Sequence record: NC_047979.1
From: Escherichia phage Gostya9
DNA length: 64,000 nt
Reading direction: 5' to 3' (one strand)
Under the pieces are notes generated by a model. The model was not told where the DNA came from. It was given only the letters and a program-made list of their open reading frames with translations, and made no database searches. Within the stretch, counting starts at the first letter, position 1; every line of letters starts with the position of its first letter. This document shows, in pieces, positions 7,650-63,033 of the stretch. A program made the position numbers and the translations under genes.

Positions 7650-7716
7650 TCCTATAGTGTACTTCGCTTCTAACAGAGGATCAACAAAAAGATCTTGTTT
7701 ATCAACTTACAAATAT

Positions 7717-7745
7717 ATTATACCAGTATATATAGTAAAAAGCAA
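7717..7745 (-). promoter_or_regulatory. Early promoter with extended -10 on minus strand, upstream of phoH
   Basis: Reverse complement reads aaaattgtagTTGCTTtttactatatatacTGGTATAAT. Confidence 0.5.
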
Positions 7746-7882
7746 CTACAATTTTAAATAAGCCTATGATATTGCATTTAAATAAAAAATTTGCTTGCTT
7801 ATAAAGGTAGAAATATGATACTAGATAATCATTTATTTATACGCGAAATATTACAGTATTAGATGGCGAAAGAAAAATTTAA

Positions 7883-7911
7883 TTGACATAGTGGGTAATA
7901 TTTAGTATAAT
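7883..7911 (+). promoter_or_regulatory. Consensus sigma70 promoter TTGACA-17-TATAAT upstream of nrdD
   Basis: Exact consensus hexamers with 17-bp spacer, followed by a ~130-nt leader before the nrdD ATG at 8045. Confidence 0.6.
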
Positions 7912-8044
7912 AAGTGTAAAAATTCTGAGGAGAAAACTAACCCACAGTAACTACTGTAAAGAGTAGAACTGTCAGTACAGAAGTTTTAACGGGGTATAGA
8001 GGTCCTCGGTACTGTAGCTACAAAATTTATAGAGGAAATAATTA

Positions 8045-12949: not shown

Positions 12950-12972
12950 TTTTTATTAGCTGAACTCTGATT

Positions 12973-13000
12973 ACCGAGTCATTTTGGCTCGGTTTTCTCT
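12973..13000 (+). terminator. Rho-independent terminator
   Basis: accgag / ctcggt stem followed by tttctct. Confidence 0.45.
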
Positions 13001-13040
13001 ATGCTCAAAGACACTGGTAGCAGCATCCGGAAAATTTTAC

Positions 13041-13069
13041 TTGCATGATGCCCAAAATCTTGATATAAT
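13041..13069 (+). promoter_or_regulatory. Early promoter TTGCAT-17-TGaTATAAT with no ORF behind it for about 600 nt
   Basis: aaaattttacTTGCATgatgcccaaaatctTGATATAATatttatattgaattgagagac; downstream 13070-13666 has no ORF of 60 aa or more on either strand. Confidence 0.5.
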
Positions 13070-13666
13070 ATTTATATTGAATTGAGAGACATTAGTAAAA
13101 ATTGATTTTGCTAATTTTTCTTAGTGAAGCTGACAAGGGATTTACGGCGAGAGGAATCGATGACCCGTAAATAGCTGCATAAGGTACGTTGCTAGAGCTT
13201 TACGAAAAAGTTTTTTCTTGTTTACAATCCGCGATACGGAACAGTTAGGCTGCCCCATTAAGGGTTGTTTTAACTGTTACGTGTTAGTTTTTAAACAACT
13301 AATTAATAGAATACTTAGCGATCTGCGTCCCATAGGAACCCTGGTAAGGCCTCGAAGCAACCTAGTATGAGGTGGTTGTGAAGTGAGATGGGAGGAGTGA
13401 AAAACTACCGAGACGTGATTCTGTAAGTTATATTGCATCTAGTATGAGCTAGTATATGAAGCATTAGGTGAGCAAATCTGGCTTAGCGGCCATCCTCAAG
13501 GATTTGTGCGGTATAATGAGGCAGCAGCGCAGCGTGAAAGTGGAAGTTGCCACCCCACTTCAGTATTTGCAATTAATTTGTTGAGAAATTGACAGTAACA
13601 GTTGTTCTATTCTTTCTGAATAGTCCTAAAGAAAACTTATTTCATTTCCAACACAGGAGTATTGTT

Positions 13667-16682: not shown

Positions 16683-16711
16683 TTGCATAGTTCAAAAAAT
16701 TTCTGTATAAT
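16683..16711 (+). promoter_or_regulatory. Strong early promoter, T5 PN25-like
   Basis: tcataaaaaatttaTTTGCATagttcaaaaaatttcTGTATAATagattcataaatttgagagaggagtt; from TTTCTGTATAAT onward this matches the T5 PN25 promoter as I recall it. Confidence 0.65.
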
Positions 16712-16742
16712 AGATTCATAAATTTGAGAGAGGAGTTTAAAT

Positions 16743-56390: not shown

Positions 56391-57128
56391 TTAGTCTCCA
56401 GGAACAACAGGATTAACTGTCACAGCACATATAGTAGAGTCCTTGCTTACTTGCTTACTATCTGTTACAGTTACTTTATAAGAGCCGGCATCCTCAGCTG
56501 CTGCTGCAGGCTTAGTATAGGTAGCTTCTGAAGCATCCGGAATAGGAGAACCATCTTTAGTCCATGCATAAGTATATGGACCAGTACCACCAGTTGCAGT
56601 AACAGAAAGTGTTAATGCTGCTCCCTCTTCGACTGACATGCTAGCAGCTAAATCTGTAGAAAGAGTTAATGGTGGAATAACTGTAGTCACACACTCAACA
56701 GACGTTATACTAGCTTGTTTACTATCAGTAACTACTACTTTATAAGTACCAGCGTCTTCCGCAGCTGCTGTAGCTTTAGTAAAGTTAGGTCCTGATGCTT
56801 CTAGAGGAGAACCATCCTTAGTCCAAGCATACGTATATGGAGCTGTACCGCCACTAACTGTTACGCTTAGATTAATTGCCTCTCCAGTATCAACTTCCAA
56901 AGTGCTATCTAGATCCTTAGTAAAAGCCAGAGGAGGAAATGCTTTATCATAAGCCTCTACAAATTTCTTCCATACTTTACGGTTAGTATGCGCAGATGAA
57001 AGTCCTAGTTCTCTACGCAGAAAAGCATAGCTAGGAACATATTCATGCGCAGCGACCGTAGCAAAGAAGATATGAGATTCTGGCAGGTTTTCACCAAAAA
57101 TGGTCTTTAGACCATTATAATCAATCAT
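56391..57128 (-). CDS. Capsid decoration-like protein with two tandem Ig-like domains
   Basis: Two about 55-aa repeats (SVTVSGGTAPYTYAWTKDGSPLE... and SVTATGGTGPYTYAWTKDGSPIP...). Confidence 0.6.
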   Translation of the reverse strand: MIDYNGLKTIFGENLPESHIFFATVAAHEYVPSYAFLRRELGLSSAHTNRKVWKKFVEAYDKAFPPLAFTKDLDSTLEVDTGEAINLSVTVSGGTAPYTYAWTKDGSPLEASGPNFTKATAAAEDAGTYKVVVTDSKQASITSVECVTTVIPPLTLSTDLAASMSVEEGAALTLSVTATGGTGPYTYAWTKDGSPIPDASEATYTKPAAAAEDAGSYKVTVTDSKQVSKDSTICAVTVNPVVPGD

Positions 57129-58342
57129 TCTTTATCTCCCTCGGTGGAACCTTGAGGTCTACCACCTTCTTGACCAGATACACCTGTTGCAGAACCAGCA
57201 ACGTTAGCAGGAATACGAATCCTATTCATCTGCTCATCATCTAAAGGTTCAAGGTTCAGCTCTAAACGAGCTTCGTTACCAGTCATAATACCATTATTAA
57301 CCAATGAGGTTAAATGTTTAGCCTCAGCTTCTTTATCTGGTGTTAATGCAGCTACCTCCTTAGTATTAGGGGTAATCCTATAACCAAAAAAGAAAGTAAG
57401 AGAACTAGTCAGTTTGTTCAGCATAGGAATGATAGTCATATAATAGAACAATTCGATGTTTGGTCGAATATTCGCATTATTACCACCATCAATCAGTACT
57501 TGCGGAACACCAAAGGCTAGACAGATAGATTTATTAAATCCTGCGATGTCTTCCTTAAAGTCTAGATCTTTAAAAGAGGATATTTGGGAGTACGGTTTAG
57601 CTTTCATACCACCATCTAGAATCAGGACAGAAGACTGACCCGTACTAGGATTATAATCGAGTTGTAATTCTTCTTGTTTACGCTCACGCAATTTCTTGTT
57701 CAGGATTTCATCCGTTTCAAGAATAAGACCAATCACGGTTCCGTTATCTAGGAACTTCTCTTTAAAGTTAAGCATTTTAGAACGCTTCTCAAGAGAATCA
57801 ATAACAGTAGCAACACGAGATTGTCCAGAAATTTGAGAATTTGTGCCACACACGTAACTGTTATCCTTTATAAAGATAATCTCATCTACGCGATAGTTTA
57901 TCTGATTATTAAATATAAATTTTTTGATAAACTTATTGGCATCTGCCTCGACCTGCATAAGAGCGGCCGGGACGTGGTAAAGCGATGTGCCATCCCAATA
58001 GATGTATGCACAACCCTCAAAAAGTAGGTCAGTGACTACAAGTCTACGGAATGTGCTTATATCCATGAATGGATTAGGTCGTACATTTAAGAGAGTGTCT
58101 AGAGTCTTTGTTTTGACGCCATTAGCGTACGTAACAATATTATATTTATCTCCGACAGTATAAGAACACTCCGCCGCACTATCTATAACCATATTGGCAG
58201 TTCGATTGAGAATCTCAATCTTGCTATAGGCTTGTCCAGTGGTAAAAGGCTTACGGTTAGTGCGATGACTAACTGGTTCCATGTCTCTTATAATACGTTG
58301 ACCCGGATTTAGCTTTTCAGTAATCCAGCTTTTAAAACCCAT
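57125..58342 (-). CDS. Portal protein
   Basis: 405 aa directly downstream of terminase/HNH and upstream of the protease. Confidence 0.7.
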   Translation of the reverse strand: MGFKSWITEKLNPGQRIIRDMEPVSHRTNRKPFTTGQAYSKIEILNRTANMVIDSAAECSYTVGDKYNIVTYANGVKTKTLDTLLNVRPNPFMDISTFRRLVVTDLLFEGCAYIYWDGTSLYHVPAALMQVEADANKFIKKFIFNNQINYRVDEIIFIKDNSYVCGTNSQISGQSRVATVIDSLEKRSKMLNFKEKFLDNGTVIGLILETDEILNKKLRERKQEELQLDYNPSTGQSSVLILDGGMKAKPYSQISSFKDLDFKEDIAGFNKSICLAFGVPQVLIDGGNNANIRPNIELFYYMTIIPMLNKLTSSLTFFFGYRITPNTKEVAALTPDKEAEAKHLTSLVNNGIMTGNEARLELNLEPLDDEQMNRIRIPANVAGSATGVSGQEGGRPQGSTEGDKE

Positions 58343-58794
58343 TATAAGAACCTTGCGAATCCTGATTTTGTTTCAGTCTTGACTTGTGTCTTTTCTTGAG
58401 GATTCTGTAATTTGTCTTTCTGCTTTTGAACCCATGCTTTCTGTTTATCAGCAGAAAATAATGGAGGTTCTTTCGTGTAAACCTTATGTAGTAATTGGTG
58501 ATGGTGCTGGCACAATGTTACCACGTCCCTAACTAACTCATGCTCATATTTCTTGTAGAATGCTTCCCTATTTGAAAGGACGATATTCTCATCAGTGAAA
58601 TCCAGCTGGAGTTCTTTAGCAAATTTTTTTATTAGCTGAGATATAGTATGATAATGGTGAAGTTCTAGGTCTTCACTACTACCACATATAGCACAGCAAC
58701 CATCCTTACTATACCTAGATTTTATACCATCCCTCATTATAGAAATGGCATCACGTTTGTACTTAGTATTAGTGGCCATAATCCTCCAATCCAA
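58342..58794 (-). CDS. HNH endonuclease, terminase-associated
   Basis: CAICGSSEDLELHHYH...LCQHHHQLLH HNH/Zn motifs; 150 aa; between terminase and portal. Confidence 0.75.
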   Translation of the reverse strand: MDWRIMATNTKYKRDAISIMRDGIKSRYSKDGCCAICGSSEDLELHHYHTISQLIKKFAKELQLDFTDENIVLSNREAFYKKYEHELVRDVVTLCQHHHQLLHKVYTKEPPLFSADKQKAWVQKQKDKLQNPQEKTQVKTETKSGFARFL

Positions 58795-59297
58795 AGCTAC
58801 TTAGAAAGATTACTATATCCTCTAGGGCAACATTGAGATTCCATCTAATGTGGTATAGCATATATGACCCTTATTGTGTTATAGATGTAGTTTTTATTAG
58901 TATAGTTATTTGATAGCACATACCCTATTCTGAGTATTTTGGCTTTAATAGCTACATCTAGTGATATAGTGTAGAGGTGTAATGTGGTGTTGCTTCCCAA
59001 ACGTGTGCTCTCTGGCATTTAAATACTGTTTTTGTACGTTGGTTTACATATTCACCGACAATTTGGATTCCACGATCAGCTAATCTAATATTTATATCTT
59101 TTATTGTTAGCTTTTGTCGACCCGTAGAATCTCCTACACCTCATGTAGAGCATTAATTTTTTCTTGTTTACGTTCTATTATGGGAGAAGTTCTCCCGATC
59201 AATGAATATAGTATACATAATCGTATCGAATTTGTAAAGGGGATTTTAAAATACAGGAATGGGATACCAACTGAGTAGTATCCCATCCTATACTTAT

Positions 59298-60614
59298 TTA
59301 TTTACCACGGGAAATAGAGTAAATTCCATAGCGGAGCGCATCACAAAGGTGAGAGTTAGCATCATGACGTGGCCTTTCACGTGATAATTTCTCTTCACCT
59401 TCTTGGAAGTCCCACTTATAGTTCTGCAATGCATGAATTAAGGAGGAACATGAGGCATCCACAATAATTTTCCCTTGCTGGAATAGTGCTTGCAAGCATG
59501 CTAGGCCATCTAGGACAGATTTTTTAGCCGGAGCCGACGCGATTTCATGCTCATACGCTAAGTCCTGGCGGAACTGAGCTGCTGCAGAGTCAACAAAAAT
59601 ACGATCAACTTTATAACGATCTATACAGTGCTGAATATAAGCAGCATGCTGAGCTGTAGTTTTCTCCGCCTGCTGGTATTCTTCTAACACATAGTAGGTA
59701 TCTGTATCGTAATGATACTTAATAGTAAGAACTGCTGTAGGATCACGATAACCAACGTCAATACCAAGCAACGTTTCGAATGCTTCATCATCTTTAAAGA
59801 AGTGACGCATACCTTTGAGGTCTTTAACATGATCGATAGCATTAAAGGTATCAAATATCTGTCCTTCGAATACAGAGAAGTCAGCCTCGTATTCCTGGCG
59901 GAAATAGTTTTTACTAACTGTACGACGTGCTTCCTCAATGTCATGCAAGTCAGCACGTGGGTTATCACGATATGTACCATGAATAGATACCCAGTTAGGC
60001 AACGTATCATCAAATCCGTAGGCGTAAAACTCTTTAAACCAGTTACCTCCACGAGGAGTGGAAATAAATAGAGCCTTAGAATTAGGTTTATCTAGAGTAG
60101 GACGCAGCTGAACCCTGAAGGCATCACCGCCCACGTCGGAAATTGCAGCCTCGTCAAAGATGATAAAATCATATGAACGTCCAACTGCGGAGTCAGCCTG
60201 AGCCGCGGAAGCTAGTTTAAATAGAGAACCATTAGCTAACTCAATCTCTTTATCTTTGGCGTTTTCACGTTCGGTTTGTAGGCCATACTTCTTAATAAGA
60301 CCACGAATCTGAGACCATCCGATATTAGCTAGTGAATAGTTAGGAGCAACTACTAGTACCTTCACATTAGGTTCCAGCAATTTTAGGAACCCTAGTGTGT
60401 ATGCTATAAAGGACTTGCCCACACGGCGTGATACACACGCCGTTACAAAACGATGTCTAGGGTCTTCTAGCGCATTGATAATCGCTATTTGAGGGCCATT
60501 AGGTGTAATACCCTCTTGTGCTAATATTCCTGAAACAGGTAGACGAAAGAAACGTTTGTCTACCCCGAAATCAATAACATCTACTGTGTTAACGTAGGGT
60601 CTTGATACTTCCAT
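59298..60614 (-). CDS. Terminase large subunit
   Basis: N-terminal ATPase with Walker A-like CVSRRVGKSF and Walker B-like IIFDEAA; C-terminal nuclease region; 438 aa. Confidence 0.85.
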   Translation of the reverse strand: MEVSRPYVNTVDVIDFGVDKRFFRLPVSGILAQEGITPNGPQIAIINALEDPRHRFVTACVSRRVGKSFIAYTLGFLKLLEPNVKVLVVAPNYSLANIGWSQIRGLIKKYGLQTERENAKDKEIELANGSLFKLASAAQADSAVGRSYDFIIFDEAAISDVGGDAFRVQLRPTLDKPNSKALFISTPRGGNWFKEFYAYGFDDTLPNWVSIHGTYRDNPRADLHDIEEARRTVSKNYFRQEYEADFSVFEGQIFDTFNAIDHVKDLKGMRHFFKDDEAFETLLGIDVGYRDPTAVLTIKYHYDTDTYYVLEEYQQAEKTTAQHAAYIQHCIDRYKVDRIFVDSAAAQFRQDLAYEHEIASAPAKKSVLDGLACLQALFQQGKIIVDASCSSLIHALQNYKWDFQEGEEKLSRERPRHDANSHLCDALRYGIYSISRGK

Positions 60615-61096
60615 TACTTCTTACCTCCAGTAGCTAGGGAAGTAATTAAGTCCATGTAGTTTTGATCCCCAGCTCCAGCAATAATGTTATTCTGGATATT
60701 GGTCTGGTTAGCAGGAGCTCGAACGGCGGCTTTAGCTTTCTCTAGCTCTACCATCATCTTCATTTCTTCCATCTTCATTTTGTGTGCCTTCCAGAGAATA
60801 TCCATAATATCCTGGTCAGAGCCCATGCCAGTTTCTTCCAGTTCCTCTAGTTTACGCTTAATAACTTCGTCTAGAACCCCAAACAAACGATCCCTATTAC
60901 GGAATCCACTCTCCATAAAAATATCGTTTAAGTAGTTCTTAACTTCACTACGATTCATAATATCTCGAAAAGCAATTTCAGACATTCCAAGACTACGTGC
61001 GGCAGAAGGCACATCACTGCCGCACTGTAAATAAGCTTCAATCACATCCATCCCTTCAGGGGACATAAGATCTGGTACTAATACATCATTTGCCAT
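60614..61096 (-). CDS. Putative terminase small subunit
   Basis: 160 aa immediately upstream of terminase large with overlapping stop/start; HTH-like [17 protein letters not shown]. Confidence 0.5.
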
Positions 61097-63033
61097 TATG
61101 TTAACCTCTGTATATTTAATCTTAGCTTAGGAAATTGGATGTACGGCGGTTTGCCTGTGGAAACTCCACCAACCGTTAGAGGAGTAGCACGAGAAGTTCC
61201 CCAGAACTCCAGATTACCAGTACTGCCATTCTTCCTTATATAGTATTGGAACCTGCTCTTTGGTTTACCACCACTAGAGCTAGAAGCCCCTGAGTAGCTA
61301 AAAGCATTTTCCACATAGATAGGAACGTAGACGTTAGGGTTTAAAACTATTATTTGGTGAGATACAGCATCACCTTTATCATAGTCAAATTTGGTTAATC
61401 TTTTGCTAACCCCTGCCGGACTGTATATAGAGCTATTTAAACTCCAGAGATAACCCATTGAAGGATCTCCATTAGGGGAGCATAGGTCATTTCCCATCCA
61501 TTCTATGCTCATAAGCACTACTGTAGTACCAGATGCCGGTAATCCCATCCCAACACTACTAATCATTTTTGTACCACCAGTGGCTATCTCGTGTAGCCAC
61601 TCGTTATCTCCTATAATTACATTACTAGCCTTATTACCAGTAAAGAGCTGTAGAGGCCTAACTGTAGGACTCCAAATATCTACATTATTTATAGAGATTT
61701 TAGGACCCGAGCTATTAATAGCAATACTGCTATTGGTGGGGAATTTGTAAAGCCCAATATTCCATTGTGTTGTAGAACCTATGGAAGTTTCAACGTTTGA
61801 AGCTGCCCAGCTACCTGAACCTCCGGATCCGGTAGTACCATAAAACCTGAAAGCGCCCCCATCCGGTAACGCAGTGGCAGAAGATGCCTGAGTATTACTG
61901 CAAAAGTAGGTATTGCTTATACTAGGAGTACCTGTACTAACCGCTGATAACATTTCATAGGATGTGCTGCGCAAATTGACACCTTTTATATTAAAGTCAG
62001 TCCTACTAACTTTTATATCACTACCCGTAAAAAGGTTTTGAGCTGTATATCCACCAGTATTACTGAATGTTACGTTTAGAACTAGGTATTCCATACGTAC
62101 AGGGGTCATCCCAGCGTAGGTAGCTTCAGTAAACCCAGAAATTAATCCATTCCTAACATGGCGTTCAATCCCAGCACGAACAAATTTAGACATAGGTACA
62201 GAAGCATATAAATCTGGAATACTATTAGCGTAATAATCTATATTCCTAACAGATGAGGCTGTAGTACCTGCATATGTATTTTTTATCCCTGTTAGATTTC
62301 TGGCCCCACCTGCCCTAACGAATACAGTATCATAGGTGCTACTAGATGGGCCTAGGGGATACATATAATCTGGGTTTATCAGAAAGTTTTTTTCCATATC
62401 ACGAATATTTCCTGTGTATGGATTACTGCCTCTAGGAAGCCAATTCCTATTAGGTGTCCTTTTATACGGGTATTGAGACCATACACCAGTAATAGTAGCC
62501 CCCGAAGCTATATCAAAAGCATACGCTGGGTCATAATCCTCTCCAGCCTCAACATTAAATATAGTATAGCCACCAGTACCTGCCACACCAATTCTATCTG
62601 CTACAGTAACTCCCGAAGCAGCCGTATAGTACCCCCATTCTAAGTTGAGATCAAAGGATAAAGACCCACCATATAGACAGGACACACCTATTAAATCTAA
62701 GTCATGCCAAAGGTAGCTAGAAGCTCTGGCCATCCCAAACATCTGATGGTAATATTCAGTACCACCGCTGTTCTTACATACTAAAACAGGAATAACAACG
62801 TTGGCTCTATTGGCCAGGATAGTACGTAGTTCGGTTGGAAGTGTACCAATGAAGTAACCATCACCACCAGCACCTAAGTTTACCGTATAACGTGTCTTCA
62901 CGAAAAGATGTGGCATGTCTGAGTGAAATATAGTATTCCCGTTTGGCGTGTTATGTATGTTAACATCTCCCCCAGAAGCCGTATTGAGGGAAAGGACAGT
63001 TTTCGTTCCTATTCTTCCGGCAAAGAAGCTCAT
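61096..63033 (-). CDS. Putative receptor-binding tail protein (pb5-like position)
   Basis: 645-aa Gly/Ser/Thr/Asn-rich beta-type protein at the head of the late block; size and position match the T5 receptor-binding protein as I recall it. No sequence comparison was possible. Confidence 0.5.

Follow-up and report, generated by a model that had tools for sequence, protein, structure and literature searches.

The window analysed here is a stretch of 64,000 nucleotides from Escherichia phage Gostya9, a Tequintavirus whose nearest relative is DT57C (98.6% identity across 57100-60700). The genes at the locus under study are all transcribed from the minus strand; terS and terL come first, then a gap, then a gene for an HNH-like protein (sciA) and the portal gene. 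As originally predicted, both strands of 58795-59297 are free of overlapping ORFs of at least 60 aa, the longest one there having 57 aa, and this is the second-longest such ORF-free stretch within the 64-kb window, after 12950-13588. The neighboring ORF, 58342-58794, is real, although translation almost certainly begins at the ATG at 58779, which gives a protein of 145 aa and matches both the DT57C annotation and the crystallised protein; the non-coding stretch is therefore 58780-59297, or 518 bp. Nothing is annotated between sciA and terL in DT57C. An Rfam scan over 57000-61000 (E up to 1) gave no match, a tRNA and tmRNA scan of the whole window found none, and a repeat search in and around the gap returned only weak inverted repeats, with no direct repeats and no transposon-like ends. 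The gap has two parts, a conserved spacer core (59202-59297) and a pseudogene (59201-58769), and the features of the locus, in the direction of transcription, are as follows.

59298..60614, minus strand: terL, terminase large subunit, 438 aa (Pfam Terminase_6N and Terminase_6C; annotated as terL in DT57C and T5)
59298-59300, minus strand: terL stop codon
59202..59297, minus strand: conserved terL-sciA spacer core, 96 bp, common to cassette-free, cassette-bearing and remnant-bearing phages
59257..59288, minus strand: terminator-like hairpin of 13 pairs with a 6-nt loop, followed by CUGUAUUUUAAAAU (terminator scan; RNA fold)
59202..59238, minus strand: predicted T5-type sigma-70 promoter (promoter scan, score 10/12), with -35 TTTACA at 59238-59233, a 17-nt spacer, -10 TATACT at 59215-59210, discriminator ATATTC and predicted +1 at 59203
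58769..59201, minus strand: pseudogene cassette, former T5orf172/zinc-finger homing endonuclease (alignments to T5, SP01 and GRNsp8; tblastn)
59182..59196: palindrome, GGGAGAACTTCTCCC on the gene strand, at about +8 to +22 of the predicted transcript, within the endonuclease 5' leader
59123..59150, minus strand: translation-start region, with a small hairpin over the Shine-Dalgarno AGGAG (59135-59131) and a dead start, ACG (59125-59123)
58982..59122, minus strand: zinc finger 1 remnant, 47 codons, 98% identity to T5.154 residues 55-101
58835..58980, minus strand: zinc finger 2 remnant, diverged (DNA identity 66-78% to T5 and about 72-83% to GRNsp8-type alleles)
58834..58835, minus strand: junction of a deletion of about 280 bp that removes the end of zinc finger 2 and the entire T5orf172 nuclease domain
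58769..58834, minus strand: retained 3' end of the endonuclease ORF, 21 codons and the stop (tblastn, 18 of 21 residues as in the T5.154 C terminus)
58342..58779, minus strand: sciA, predicted T5-type site-specific nicking endonuclease, 145 aa (HNH-like CxxC...HH...CxxHH motif)
57125..58342, minus strand: portal protein gene, 405 aa, directly downstream of sciA (Pfam Phage_portal, E = 3.6e-50; DT57C annotation)

The spacer core is the most widely shared part of the gap. About 440 INPHARED records, all T5-like, match the gap; 32 of them cover at least 80% of it, and in most the core is the only part retained, at 95-100% identity. It is near-invariant across 28 IMG/VR loci, and only 1 of its 96 columns varies among five remnant alleles. 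The additional hairpins that had been noted in the gap are present, and the strongest of them (59288-59257, minus strand) begins its stem 9 nt past the terL stop codon and folds with an RNA dG of -24.2 kcal/mol (z = -5.84; 0 of 200 shuffles folded as well). The U-tract of its tail is short and interrupted, with four consecutive U at most. In one relative (L022), the loop is changed and the perfect stem is longer; in an Eos-like phage, a hairpin of different sequence stands at the same place (dG -22.1, z = -3.4; tail AAUUUUAAAAAAU), so that the structure is kept and the sequence is not. Vibrio phage AG74 has the promoter but lacks a strong hairpin.

The predicted promoter is the only match to TTTACA-N16-18-TATAMT in the whole window, and in AY692264 a "putative promoter" is marked there. 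Its elements were found in 28 of 28 IMG/VR loci, and corresponding elements occur in the Eos-like L039 (TTTACA-17-TATAAT) and in Vibrio AG74 (TTTACA-17-TATACT); the hexamers, a spacing within 17 ± 1 and the conservation in relatives are those expected of a sigma-70 promoter. It contains TATAATAGATTCAT, the sequence of T5 promoter N25 from -12 to +2, and ATATT is found in the discriminator of T5 early promoters (PMC7472727). Termination at the hairpin and initiation at the sigma-70 element are both activities predicted from sequence. The earlier suggestion of a late promoter in the gap thus finds partial support, in the 96 bp beside terL, where the N25-type element is conserved as far as the Vibrio T5-like phages, but it does not apply to the palindrome.

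The HNH-like protein is, by homology, SciA, the T5 endonuclease that makes site-specific nicks. Over 146 residues it shares 98% identity with PDB entries 9qgv and 9qgx (E = 3e-95), and it can be assigned to family PF26848 (Phage_T5_Nicking_endo) via its database homologues, 74 of 74 of which belong to that family. The gene occupies the terL-portal interval in the window, DT57C, T5, Vibrio AG74 and Eos-like contigs. The motif CxxC...LELHHYH...CxxHHxxLH is conserved among SciA homologues, and the invariant or near-invariant residues C29, C32, H41, H42, C90, H93, H94 and H98 are all present in the window protein; H42 is a residue that the depositors of the SciA structure mutated. An alignment-based model, in which a strand at 38-42 and a strand at 86-90 are each followed by a helix, predicts the same fold as the solved SciA structure; a single-sequence AlphaFold model (pLDDT 63.9, all helical) was discarded. 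The only HNH profile match was to PHROG 8048, "HNH endonuclease" (E = 1.9e-7, residues 29-104); no Pfam HNH family scored above threshold (HNH_2, E = 0.5, 10.7 bits against a cutoff of 21), and an NCBIfam scan gave weak, meaningless matches only. SciA was crystallised on GCGC DNA, nicking at GCGC sites is known for T5 (PDB entry title), and the T5 nick consensus is R/GCGCRGG (PMC3517423). It had been proposed that the HNH protein assists terminase cleavage; this is not supported as stated, since the protein is evidently the SciA nickase and nick-less sci mutants of T5 are viable (PMC3517423).

The remainder of the gap is, on the evidence of alignments, a decayed orthologue of T5.154/T5p150, a free-standing gene that is intact in T5, where records annotate it as an 834-bp gene ("endonuclease") in this interval. 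T5.154 contains T5orf172 (3.6e-8; residues 179-264), MUG113 (1.9e-8), CapR and DUF4379 domains and matches PHROG 681, "endonuclease," at 1.8e-60. The idea that the gap holds the remains of a decayed gene, one of several offered in the original prediction, was correct for approximately 80% of it: the ends are 97-100% identical to the intact gene, and the lesions are inactivating. The translated alignment that had been suggested as a search for frameshifted remnants did recover them: in tblastn, the endonuclease residues are spread over three frames, and a stop interrupts them.

The lesions extend along the whole cassette. The segment 58981-59297 is 98-100% identical to the 5' end and upstream region of the T5 gene, apart from two 1-bp insertions (extra bases at 59141 and 59162). 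At position 59124, the window, DT57C and DT571/2 have a C, whereas SA001, L034, T5, SP01 and GRNsp8 have a T; accordingly, the start codon is ACG in the first three and ATG in SA001, L034 and the intact alleles read. Zinc finger 1 persists in frame +2, with 46 of 47 residues identical and DNA 99% identical to that of T5; in the alignment, it is truncated by a 34-bp deletion that removes its CPHC half. Zinc finger 2 is split over two frames, contains an in-frame stop and has lost its zinc ligands, whereas the CapR and DUF4379 fingers of T5.154 are intact. The 280-bp deletion (alignment columns 545-824) is common to the window, DT57C and SA001, and endonuclease residues 111-203 (numbered as in GRNsp8), the nuclease domain among them, left no trace in tblastn. 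Since that domain is wholly deleted, the window contains a former member of the T5orf172 homing endonucleases and not a member. At the other end, the retained 3' portion contains the sciA ribosome-binding site GGAGGA (58787-58782), and its last 11 nt overlap sciA; 58780-58834 (approximate boundaries) is 88% identical to the T5 gene 3' end over 59 bp in a global alignment, and a 235-bp BLAST block that runs from the gene 3' end into sciA is 97% identical. On balance, the remnant is 316 bp shorter than the T5 cassette (deletions of 34, 280 and 7 bp; insertions of 3, 1 and 1 bp).

Divergence from T5 is uneven along the remnant: identity is 98-100% in the 5' part and falls to 66-78% in the middle. 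Such a pattern is not what uniform neutral decay would give, and it calls for a mosaic or recombinant history; it suggests recombination between alleles rather than simple decay. The zinc finger 2 segment is found at ≥95% identity only in other remnant-bearing records (DT57C, DT571/2, smaug, SA001 and fragments), and no intact gene carries so close a copy of this diverged middle, none matching it better than 72% in a search for its source; the 12 records that do, a count that takes in GenBank/RefSeq duplicates and contig fragments, are all unannotated or "hypothetical" there. Among the remnant alleles, 2-4% of columns vary in the 5' part (leader and zinc finger 1) versus 7-11% in the middle and 3' end. 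The counts are small, and the lower variation in the 5' part could reflect recent recombination or some residual constraint.

Related genomes carry this site in several states. An intact T5orf172 endonuclease gene of 224-277 aa lies at exactly the same position in T5 and about 74 other records, and the nuclease-domain segment deleted from the window is retained in 74 records. Relatives thus hold an intact gene where the window holds its decayed remnant, which is the finding that the original prediction had named as one that would contradict its more exotic readings. By spacer length, the 28 IMG/VR loci fall into 18 of 114-115 bp, 8 of about 835 bp and 2 of 517-518 bp, and a further-deleted allele exists as a 262-bp K38-type variant. 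Cassette-free phages have 18 nt (ACAGTTGAGGAGAACACT) instead of the cassette, which gives the 114-bp spacer, and the left junction is identical, after ATATTCAT, in the spacers of approximately 114, 835 and 518 bp. This is a presence/absence polymorphism at one fixed site in otherwise collinear genomes. The remnant clade is small, comprising the window, DT57C, DT571/2, SA001, smaug and one metagenomic contig. In phage Key, the endonuclease gene between terL and the nicking endonuclease gene is absent (PMC10194208), and T5-like phages are rich in T5orf172 homing endonucleases that have CapR-like zinc-finger repeats, with a clustering next to the terminase genes (Barth et al. 2023; PMC10448857).

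We propose, with a probability of about 87%, that the gap consists of an ancestral terminator-promoter spacer and a dead homing-endonuclease cassette. In the spacer (59297-59202), the stable hairpin and U-rich tail most likely end the terS-terL transcript, and transcription of sciA, the portal gene and the head genes most likely begins near 59203, at the T5 N25-type sigma-70 promoter; what follows in the majority of T5-like phages is a leader of 18 nt that holds a ribosome-binding site, and then the sciA ATG. In the T5 lineage, +2/+3 of the sciA transcript is occupied by a free-standing homing endonuclease gene, its product having two CapR/DUF4379-type zinc fingers and a T5orf172 (GIY-YIG-related) nuclease domain. 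This cassette would borrow the promoter; it carries its own leader (the palindrome and a ribosome-binding-site hairpin) and overlaps the sciA start by 11 nt. In the DT57C-like clade, the gene has died through start loss, frameshifts and the 34-bp and 280-bp deletions, leaving about 420 nt of non-coding leader before sciA, and the window would represent the degeneration stage of a homing-endonuclease cycle. SciA, for its part, makes site-specific nicks at GCGC-containing sites in T5 virion DNA. The gap is a case of ordinary phage genome turnover and not a new packaging signal.

The palindrome was one of the features originally noted in the gap, for which a packaging or nicking site was among the readings offered. 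The sequence GGGAGAAGTTCTCCC is present at 59182-59196, and its description as near-perfect was an understatement, since it is a perfect 7-1-7 palindrome. The window contains 14 palindromes of this size versus 9.6 ± 2.4 expected (about 0.07 per 503 bp); they are not enriched window-wide, and the palindrome in the gap is therefore no evidence when taken alone. It is found in nearly every cassette, remnant and K38-type allele read and is absent from the 114-bp cassette-free spacers; its conservation in relatives, suggested as a check, is limited, and most T5-like phages lack the sequence that holds it. L034 has a changed center base. A cis-acting role for the gap, and above all for the palindrome, as a DNA site of the packaging machinery or the HNH nickase (pac/cos-like or a nick site) is very unlikely. 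Such a site would be well placed between the terminase and nicking endonuclease genes, would make sense of a perfect 15-bp palindrome and would fit its retention in all but one (SA001, with a substitution in one arm) of the cassette-bearing and remnant alleles read. However, the cassette-free phages (18 of the 28 IMG/VR loci and most INPHARED records) have neither the palindrome nor the rest of 59201-58798, yet they are complete sequenced isolates. R/GCGCRGG matches three times in the window versus 2.2 expected, with no match in or near the gap, for which reason the nick-site idea was dropped; the gap also contains no GCGC, whereas SciA was crystallised on GCGC DNA. Furthermore, the annotated terminal repeat region of DT571/2 and BF23 begins only beyond the receptor-binding protein and llp genes, and chance accounts for palindromes of this size across the window. 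With most relatives lacking the sequence, the nick consensus absent and the terminal repeats elsewhere, this part of the original prediction is not supported; the palindrome is instead left over from the 5' leader that belonged to the endonuclease gene. When the leader of intact T5 is folded, the UCUCCC half of the palindrome is paired to the Shine-Dalgarno of the endonuclease (dG -21.8, z = -2.55); this long-range pairing with the ribosome-binding site is not the best fold in GRNsp8 (z = -0.85) or in the window, and translational control is therefore only a suggestion.

It is also unlikely that the remnant has been co-opted, such that the leader of about 420 nt, with its palindromic stem-loop, tunes or stabilises the sciA-portal-head mRNA or blocks re-invasion by an intact endonuclease. 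The same two large deletions are common to E. coli phages, Salmonella phages and one metagenomic contig, so the remnant has persisted for some time; the leader and the zinc finger 1 part are less variable than the rest; and the Eos-like phage has a palindrome, CCTTGAGATATCTCAGG, directly after the same promoter, which implies that a 5' stem-loop arose here more than once. Most relatives nevertheless do without the entire remnant, the leader of the window folds no better than shuffled sequence (z = -0.46), the palindrome carries substitutions in SA001 and L034, and no Rfam family matches. A neutral remnant is also expected to persist, because any deletion has to leave intact both of its flanking elements, the promoter and the sciA ribosome-binding site. 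Under co-option, the DT57C lineage would have retained the leader for its effect on the sciA-portal-head transcript, or because it renders the locus immune to cleavage by an intact T5-type endonuclease during co-infection. Hardly credible is the possibility that at least one small protein is encoded in the gap, for instance by the minus-strand ORFs at 58845-59018 (57 aa) and 59134-59286 (50 aa). Small ORFs do exist there, and SA001 has an annotated 55-aa hypothetical protein in the homologous stretch; however, the 50-aa ORF starts inside the terminator hairpin and equals the over-extended 5' end of the T5.154 annotation, which matches PHROG only from residue 48 onward. In SP01 and GRNsp8, the endonuclease gene is given a start farther downstream, at an ATG preceded by a good Shine-Dalgarno. 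The 57-aa ORF consists of zinc-finger remnants fused with a shift of frame, and the SA001 ORF is a truncated zinc finger 1 that lacks half of its zinc ligands and whose start codon is ACG in the window.

The reading of the gap as a spacer followed by a dead endonuclease cassette has consequences for annotation. The "empty" 518 bp of DT57C-like genomes should be annotated as a homing-endonuclease pseudogene and the HNH gene as sciA, encoding a nicking endonuclease; in the T5 reference records, T5.154 is probably made to begin about 53 codons too early, inside a terminator hairpin. The locus provides a clean natural series (empty, intact, decayed and further deleted) for the life cycle of a T5orf172 homing endonuclease beside the terminase genes. 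In addition, the comparison pins down a predicted terminator-promoter module before sciA, the portal gene and the head genes, with a promoter that is conserved from E. coli to Vibrio T5-like phages. An early-type ATATT promoter driving part of the late head operon would bear on the T5 early-to-late switch, which is an unsolved question.

The predicted promoter resembles the T5 promoters N25, P25 and P26 in its -35 TTTACA, 17-nt spacer and -10 TATACT, followed by ATATTCAT; unlike them, it precedes genes that are classed as late. The predicted nickase differs from T5 SciA by only a few substitutions. With the terminase-associated HNH proteins of cos phages (HK97 gp74 and the GVE2 HNH protein, PDB 5h0o), it shares gene position only; unlike these proteins, SciA has its own family, PF26848, and a documented role in nicking at GCGC-containing sites. 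The cassette is like T5.154/T5p150/ORF143 of phage T5 and the orthologues of that gene ("putative homing endonuclease," "T5orf172 domain-containing protein") in its insertion point, its palindrome-bearing 5' leader and its overlap with sciA, and its ends share 88-100% DNA identity with T5; unlike those genes, the window copy is a pseudogene that lacks a start codon and a nuclease domain. Homing endonucleases pass through a cycle of invasion, fixation, degeneration and loss, which has been described for introns, inteins and phage free-standing endonuclease genes. We found no experimental report of cleavage or homing by a T5.154-type gene in the literature searched; its domain content and the presence/absence polymorphism lead us to infer past homing activity, and the uneven divergence of the remnant suggests that alleles have also recombined. 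As in that cycle, three states occur at one site in close relatives: an empty one of 114 bp, an intact one of about 835 bp and a decayed one of about 518 bp.

By sequence comparison, the gap between the large terminase subunit gene and the HNH-like gene is the wreck of an endonuclease gene of the T5.154 type. A DNA search with 57100-60700 matched 450 records in all, with 98.6% identity to Escherichia phages DT57C and DT571/2. Phage T5 and many further genomes of Tequintavirus and Epseptimavirus align in two pieces at 96% identity. The genes are arranged as follows.

60614-61096, minus strand, terS
59298-60614, minus strand, terL
58795-59297, gap between terL and the HNH-like gene
58342-58794 as listed ORF, minus strand, HNH-like gene
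57125-58342, minus strand, portal

No ORF of at least 60 aa overlaps 58795-59297, where the longest is 57 aa, confirming the ORF-free gap of about 500 bp described in the original prediction. The HNH-like ORF is listed from a TTG at 58794; its true start is most likely the ATG at 58779, giving 145 aa, because DT57C annotates the same start and the crystallized protein uses it, and the noncoding stretch is therefore 518 bp. By the same ORF threshold, the gap ranks second in length in the 64-kb window. The longest such stretch (12950-13588, 639 bp) may be a replication origin region: in related genomes its counterpart adjoins a gene annotated as a replication origin binding protein or repA helicase, and in one relative a repeat_region is marked at this place. 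The third longest is 7650-8044 (395 bp).

T5 records carry an intact 834-bp gene (T5.154/T5p150), annotated exactly between sciA and terL, whose product combines two zinc-finger modules (DUF4379 and CapR) with a C-terminal T5orf172/MUG113 nuclease domain. In the T5 reference record (NC_005859, 3842-4003, minus strand, corresponding to window 59136-59297), the annotated 277-aa reading frame probably includes about 53 codons too many, since its start lies inside a terminator-like hairpin, the match to PHROG 681 ("endonuclease"; 1.8e-60) runs only from residue 48 on, and SP01 and GRNsp8, two phages with intact alleles, annotate a downstream ATG behind AGGAG as the start; the first 53 annotated codons cover the promoter and leader. 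Read in gene orientation from alignments to T5 and GRNsp8-type alleles, the remnant consists of the following segments.

59297-58982, minus strand, 99 to 100% identity to T5 apart from one extra base each at 59162 and 59141
after the 58982 segment, 34-bp deletion relative to T5
58980-58835, minus strand, 66 to 78% identity to T5 and about 72 to 83% to GRNsp8-type alleles, with small indels
between 58980-58835 and 58834-58780, 280-bp deletion relative to T5
58834-58780, minus strand, 88 to 91% identity to the 3' end of the endonuclease gene

The net loss relative to T5 is 316 bp. Translated comparison, which the original prediction had proposed as a search for gene remnants, recovered endonuclease pieces spread over three frames: residues 2 to 48 of the 224-aa endonuclease (98% identity), a diverged piece (TISLDVAIKAKILRIGYVLSNNYTN), a piece containing a stop (KLHL*HNKGHICYTTLDGIS), and the last 21 residues. 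Finger 1 is without its CPHC half and finger 2 without its zinc ligands, and nothing of the nuclease domain remains. The ribosome-binding site of sciA (GGAGGA, 58787-58782) lies within the 3' end of the endonuclease ORF, which also overlaps the start of sciA; this explains why that end was spared. The endonuclease start codon is ACG in the window (59125-59123) and ATG in SA001, a metagenomic contig with the remnant (L034), and the intact alleles read; this difference among remnant alleles therefore indicates stepwise accumulation of lesions within the remnant clade. Of the origins first offered for the gap, the decayed gene was thus the right one: an intact gene stands at the same position in T5 records and a lesioned remnant in the window, the very situation that the original prediction named as its refutation, which tells against the more exotic origins.

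The remnant is a mosaic, most simply explained by recombination between alleles. Its 5' part shows 99 to 100% identity to T5, no intact allele in the collection comes close to its middle, and variable columns within the remnant clade make up 7 to 11% of the middle and 3' end versus 2 to 4% of the leader and finger 1. About 440 INPHARED records match the gap, most keeping only 96 bp (59202-59297). The nuclease-domain segment is kept in 74 records (52 at ≥95% and 22 at 80 to 90%), and the diverged middle occurs at ≥95% in 12 (DT57C, DT571/2, smaug, SA001, and some contig fragments), a count that includes GenBank/RefSeq duplicates as well as those fragments; none of the 12 has an annotated endonuclease at the locus. 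Among 28 IMG/VR loci, the spacer is 114 to 115 bp in 18, about 835 bp in 8, and 517 to 518 bp in 2. Salmonella phage Kenya-K38 represents a fourth state, a 262-bp spacer (1379-1640 of its locus) that keeps the cassette leader and palindrome; from there to the nickase gene the sequence is AT-rich and unrelated. T5-like sequence was also found in records named Listeria phage LM 4-11-1, Listeria phage LM 4-14-1 (95 to 99% DNA identity for the Listeria-labeled contigs), and Corynebacterium phage CPphiVTCCBPA_418, which are probably contaminated or mislabeled entries.

The HNH-like gene is assigned to sciA (PF26848, Phage_T5_Nicking_endo) because its product matches PDB entries 9qgv and 9qgx ("Nicking endonuclease"; E = 3e-95, 98% identity), PF26848 is present in all homologues, and all of these, including those of Vibrio phage AG74 and Eos-like phages, lie between terL and portal. 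The label "HNH-like" reflects a conserved CxxC...HH...CxxHH motif. In T5, sciA and sciB have been mapped to the late region, and mutants lacking the nicks are viable (PMC3517423). The suggestion that this protein assists the terminase was an analogy to HK97-type phages and finds no support here. Across loci L009 to L036, nickase identity to the window protein mostly clusters in two ranges according to cassette state: 95 to 100% where the cassette is intact or decayed and 81 to 88% where it is absent. SP01 (86%) is in the lower range despite an intact cassette. The first codons differ as well (MATNTKYK versus MASNIKYK). This pattern is consistent with flanking sequence co-inherited with the endonuclease.

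The gap is very unlikely to be a packaging or nicking site: its sequence is missing from most relatives, the T5 nick consensus R/GCGCRGG (PMC3517423) and even GCGC are absent from it, and the annotated terminal repeats start beyond the receptor-binding protein and llp genes. It is also unlikely to encode small proteins, and co-option of the remnant as a regulatory leader or in immunity is conceivable but has little to support it.

The proposed late promoter holds, as a conserved predicted promoter, for the 96 bp next to terL and fails for the rest of the gap. The terL stop, a hairpin (59288-59257; -24.2 kcal/mol, z = -5.8), TTTACA-17 nt-TATACT, and ATATTCAT are common to all locus states and almost invariant, and a "putative promoter" is already marked here in AY692264. 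In one IMG/VR locus (UViG_2974674535, ~2386-2500 of L022), the hairpin reads GGGATACCAACTGAGTTGGTATCCC instead of GGGATACTACTCAGTTGGTATCCC, with an apparently flipped loop and a longer, perfect stem, consistent with a real stem-loop undergoing loop inversion. In an Eos-like phage this position holds a hairpin of unrelated sequence (z = -3.4), with UUUUAAAAAA after it. The promoter recurs there as TTTACA-17-TATAAT-AGATTCAT and in Vibrio phage AG74 as TTTACA-17-TATACT-AGATTCAT. We infer a predicted terminator for terS-terL and then a promoter for sciA, portal, and head genes, backed by conservation. Because TATAATAGATTCAT spans -12 to +2 in the N25 promoter of T5 (PMC7472727), the predicted transcript start is 59203. 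The discriminator before these "late" genes (59210-59203) is ATATT, reported as a hallmark of T5 early promoters (PMC7472727); in the Eos-like and Vibrio counterparts it is AGATT. The motif TATAMTRKATTCAT (-10 hexamer plus N25-type start region) occurs 19 times in the window with ≤2 mismatches versus 8.1 ± 3.2 expected, with exact matches at 16706-16719 (plus strand) and the sciA promoter; such sites probably mark the phage's strong sigma-70 promoters.

After ATATTCAT, cassette-free phages continue with ACAGTTGAGGAGAACACT and the sciA ATG and cassette-bearing phages with TGATC-GGGAGAACTTCTCCC, which puts the start of the cassette at +3 of the predicted transcript. The palindrome at 59182-59196, originally called near-perfect, is a perfect 7-1-7. 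The window has 14 palindromes of this size, a number in line with chance expectation (9.6 ± 2.4). The one in the gap lies 5 nt inside the cassette, at about +8 to +22, within the endonuclease 5' leader; the Shine-Dalgarno AGGAG and ATG follow about 60 nt beyond, inside a small hairpin. In the best fold of the intact T5 leader, the UCUCCC half pairs with the Shine-Dalgarno region (z = -2.55), a pairing that RNA folding did not return for the GRNsp8 or window leader. The predicted T5 fold hints at translational control, which is common for phage homing endonucleases. In an Eos-like contig (L039, 3921-3937), another near-perfect palindrome of different sequence, CCTTGAGATATCTCAGG, immediately follows the conserved promoter in the 178-bp, endonuclease-free spacer ahead of the nickase gene; palindromes have therefore arisen more than once at the 5' end of the transcript.

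The head decoration protein (56391-57128, minus strand) has the long two-Ig-repeat form of DT57C, 245 aa versus 164 aa in T5. For the gene of the pb5-type receptor-binding tail protein (61096-63033, minus strand, 645 aa), 50,697 phage records contain no near-identical DNA, and the best-matching proteins, receptor-binding proteins of the H8/Shivani/UTK0009 type, share 53% identity; both flanks are 96 to 99% DT57C-like. This DT57C-like phage appears to have a new receptor-binding allele, whose receptor specificity may also be new.

The intact T5.154 product has the architecture of the T5orf172 homing endonucleases, which reportedly abound in T5-like phages and cluster beside terminase genes (PMC10448857). 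The gap is a degenerate member of this known selfish-gene class, lying beside a known, structurally solved nickase.
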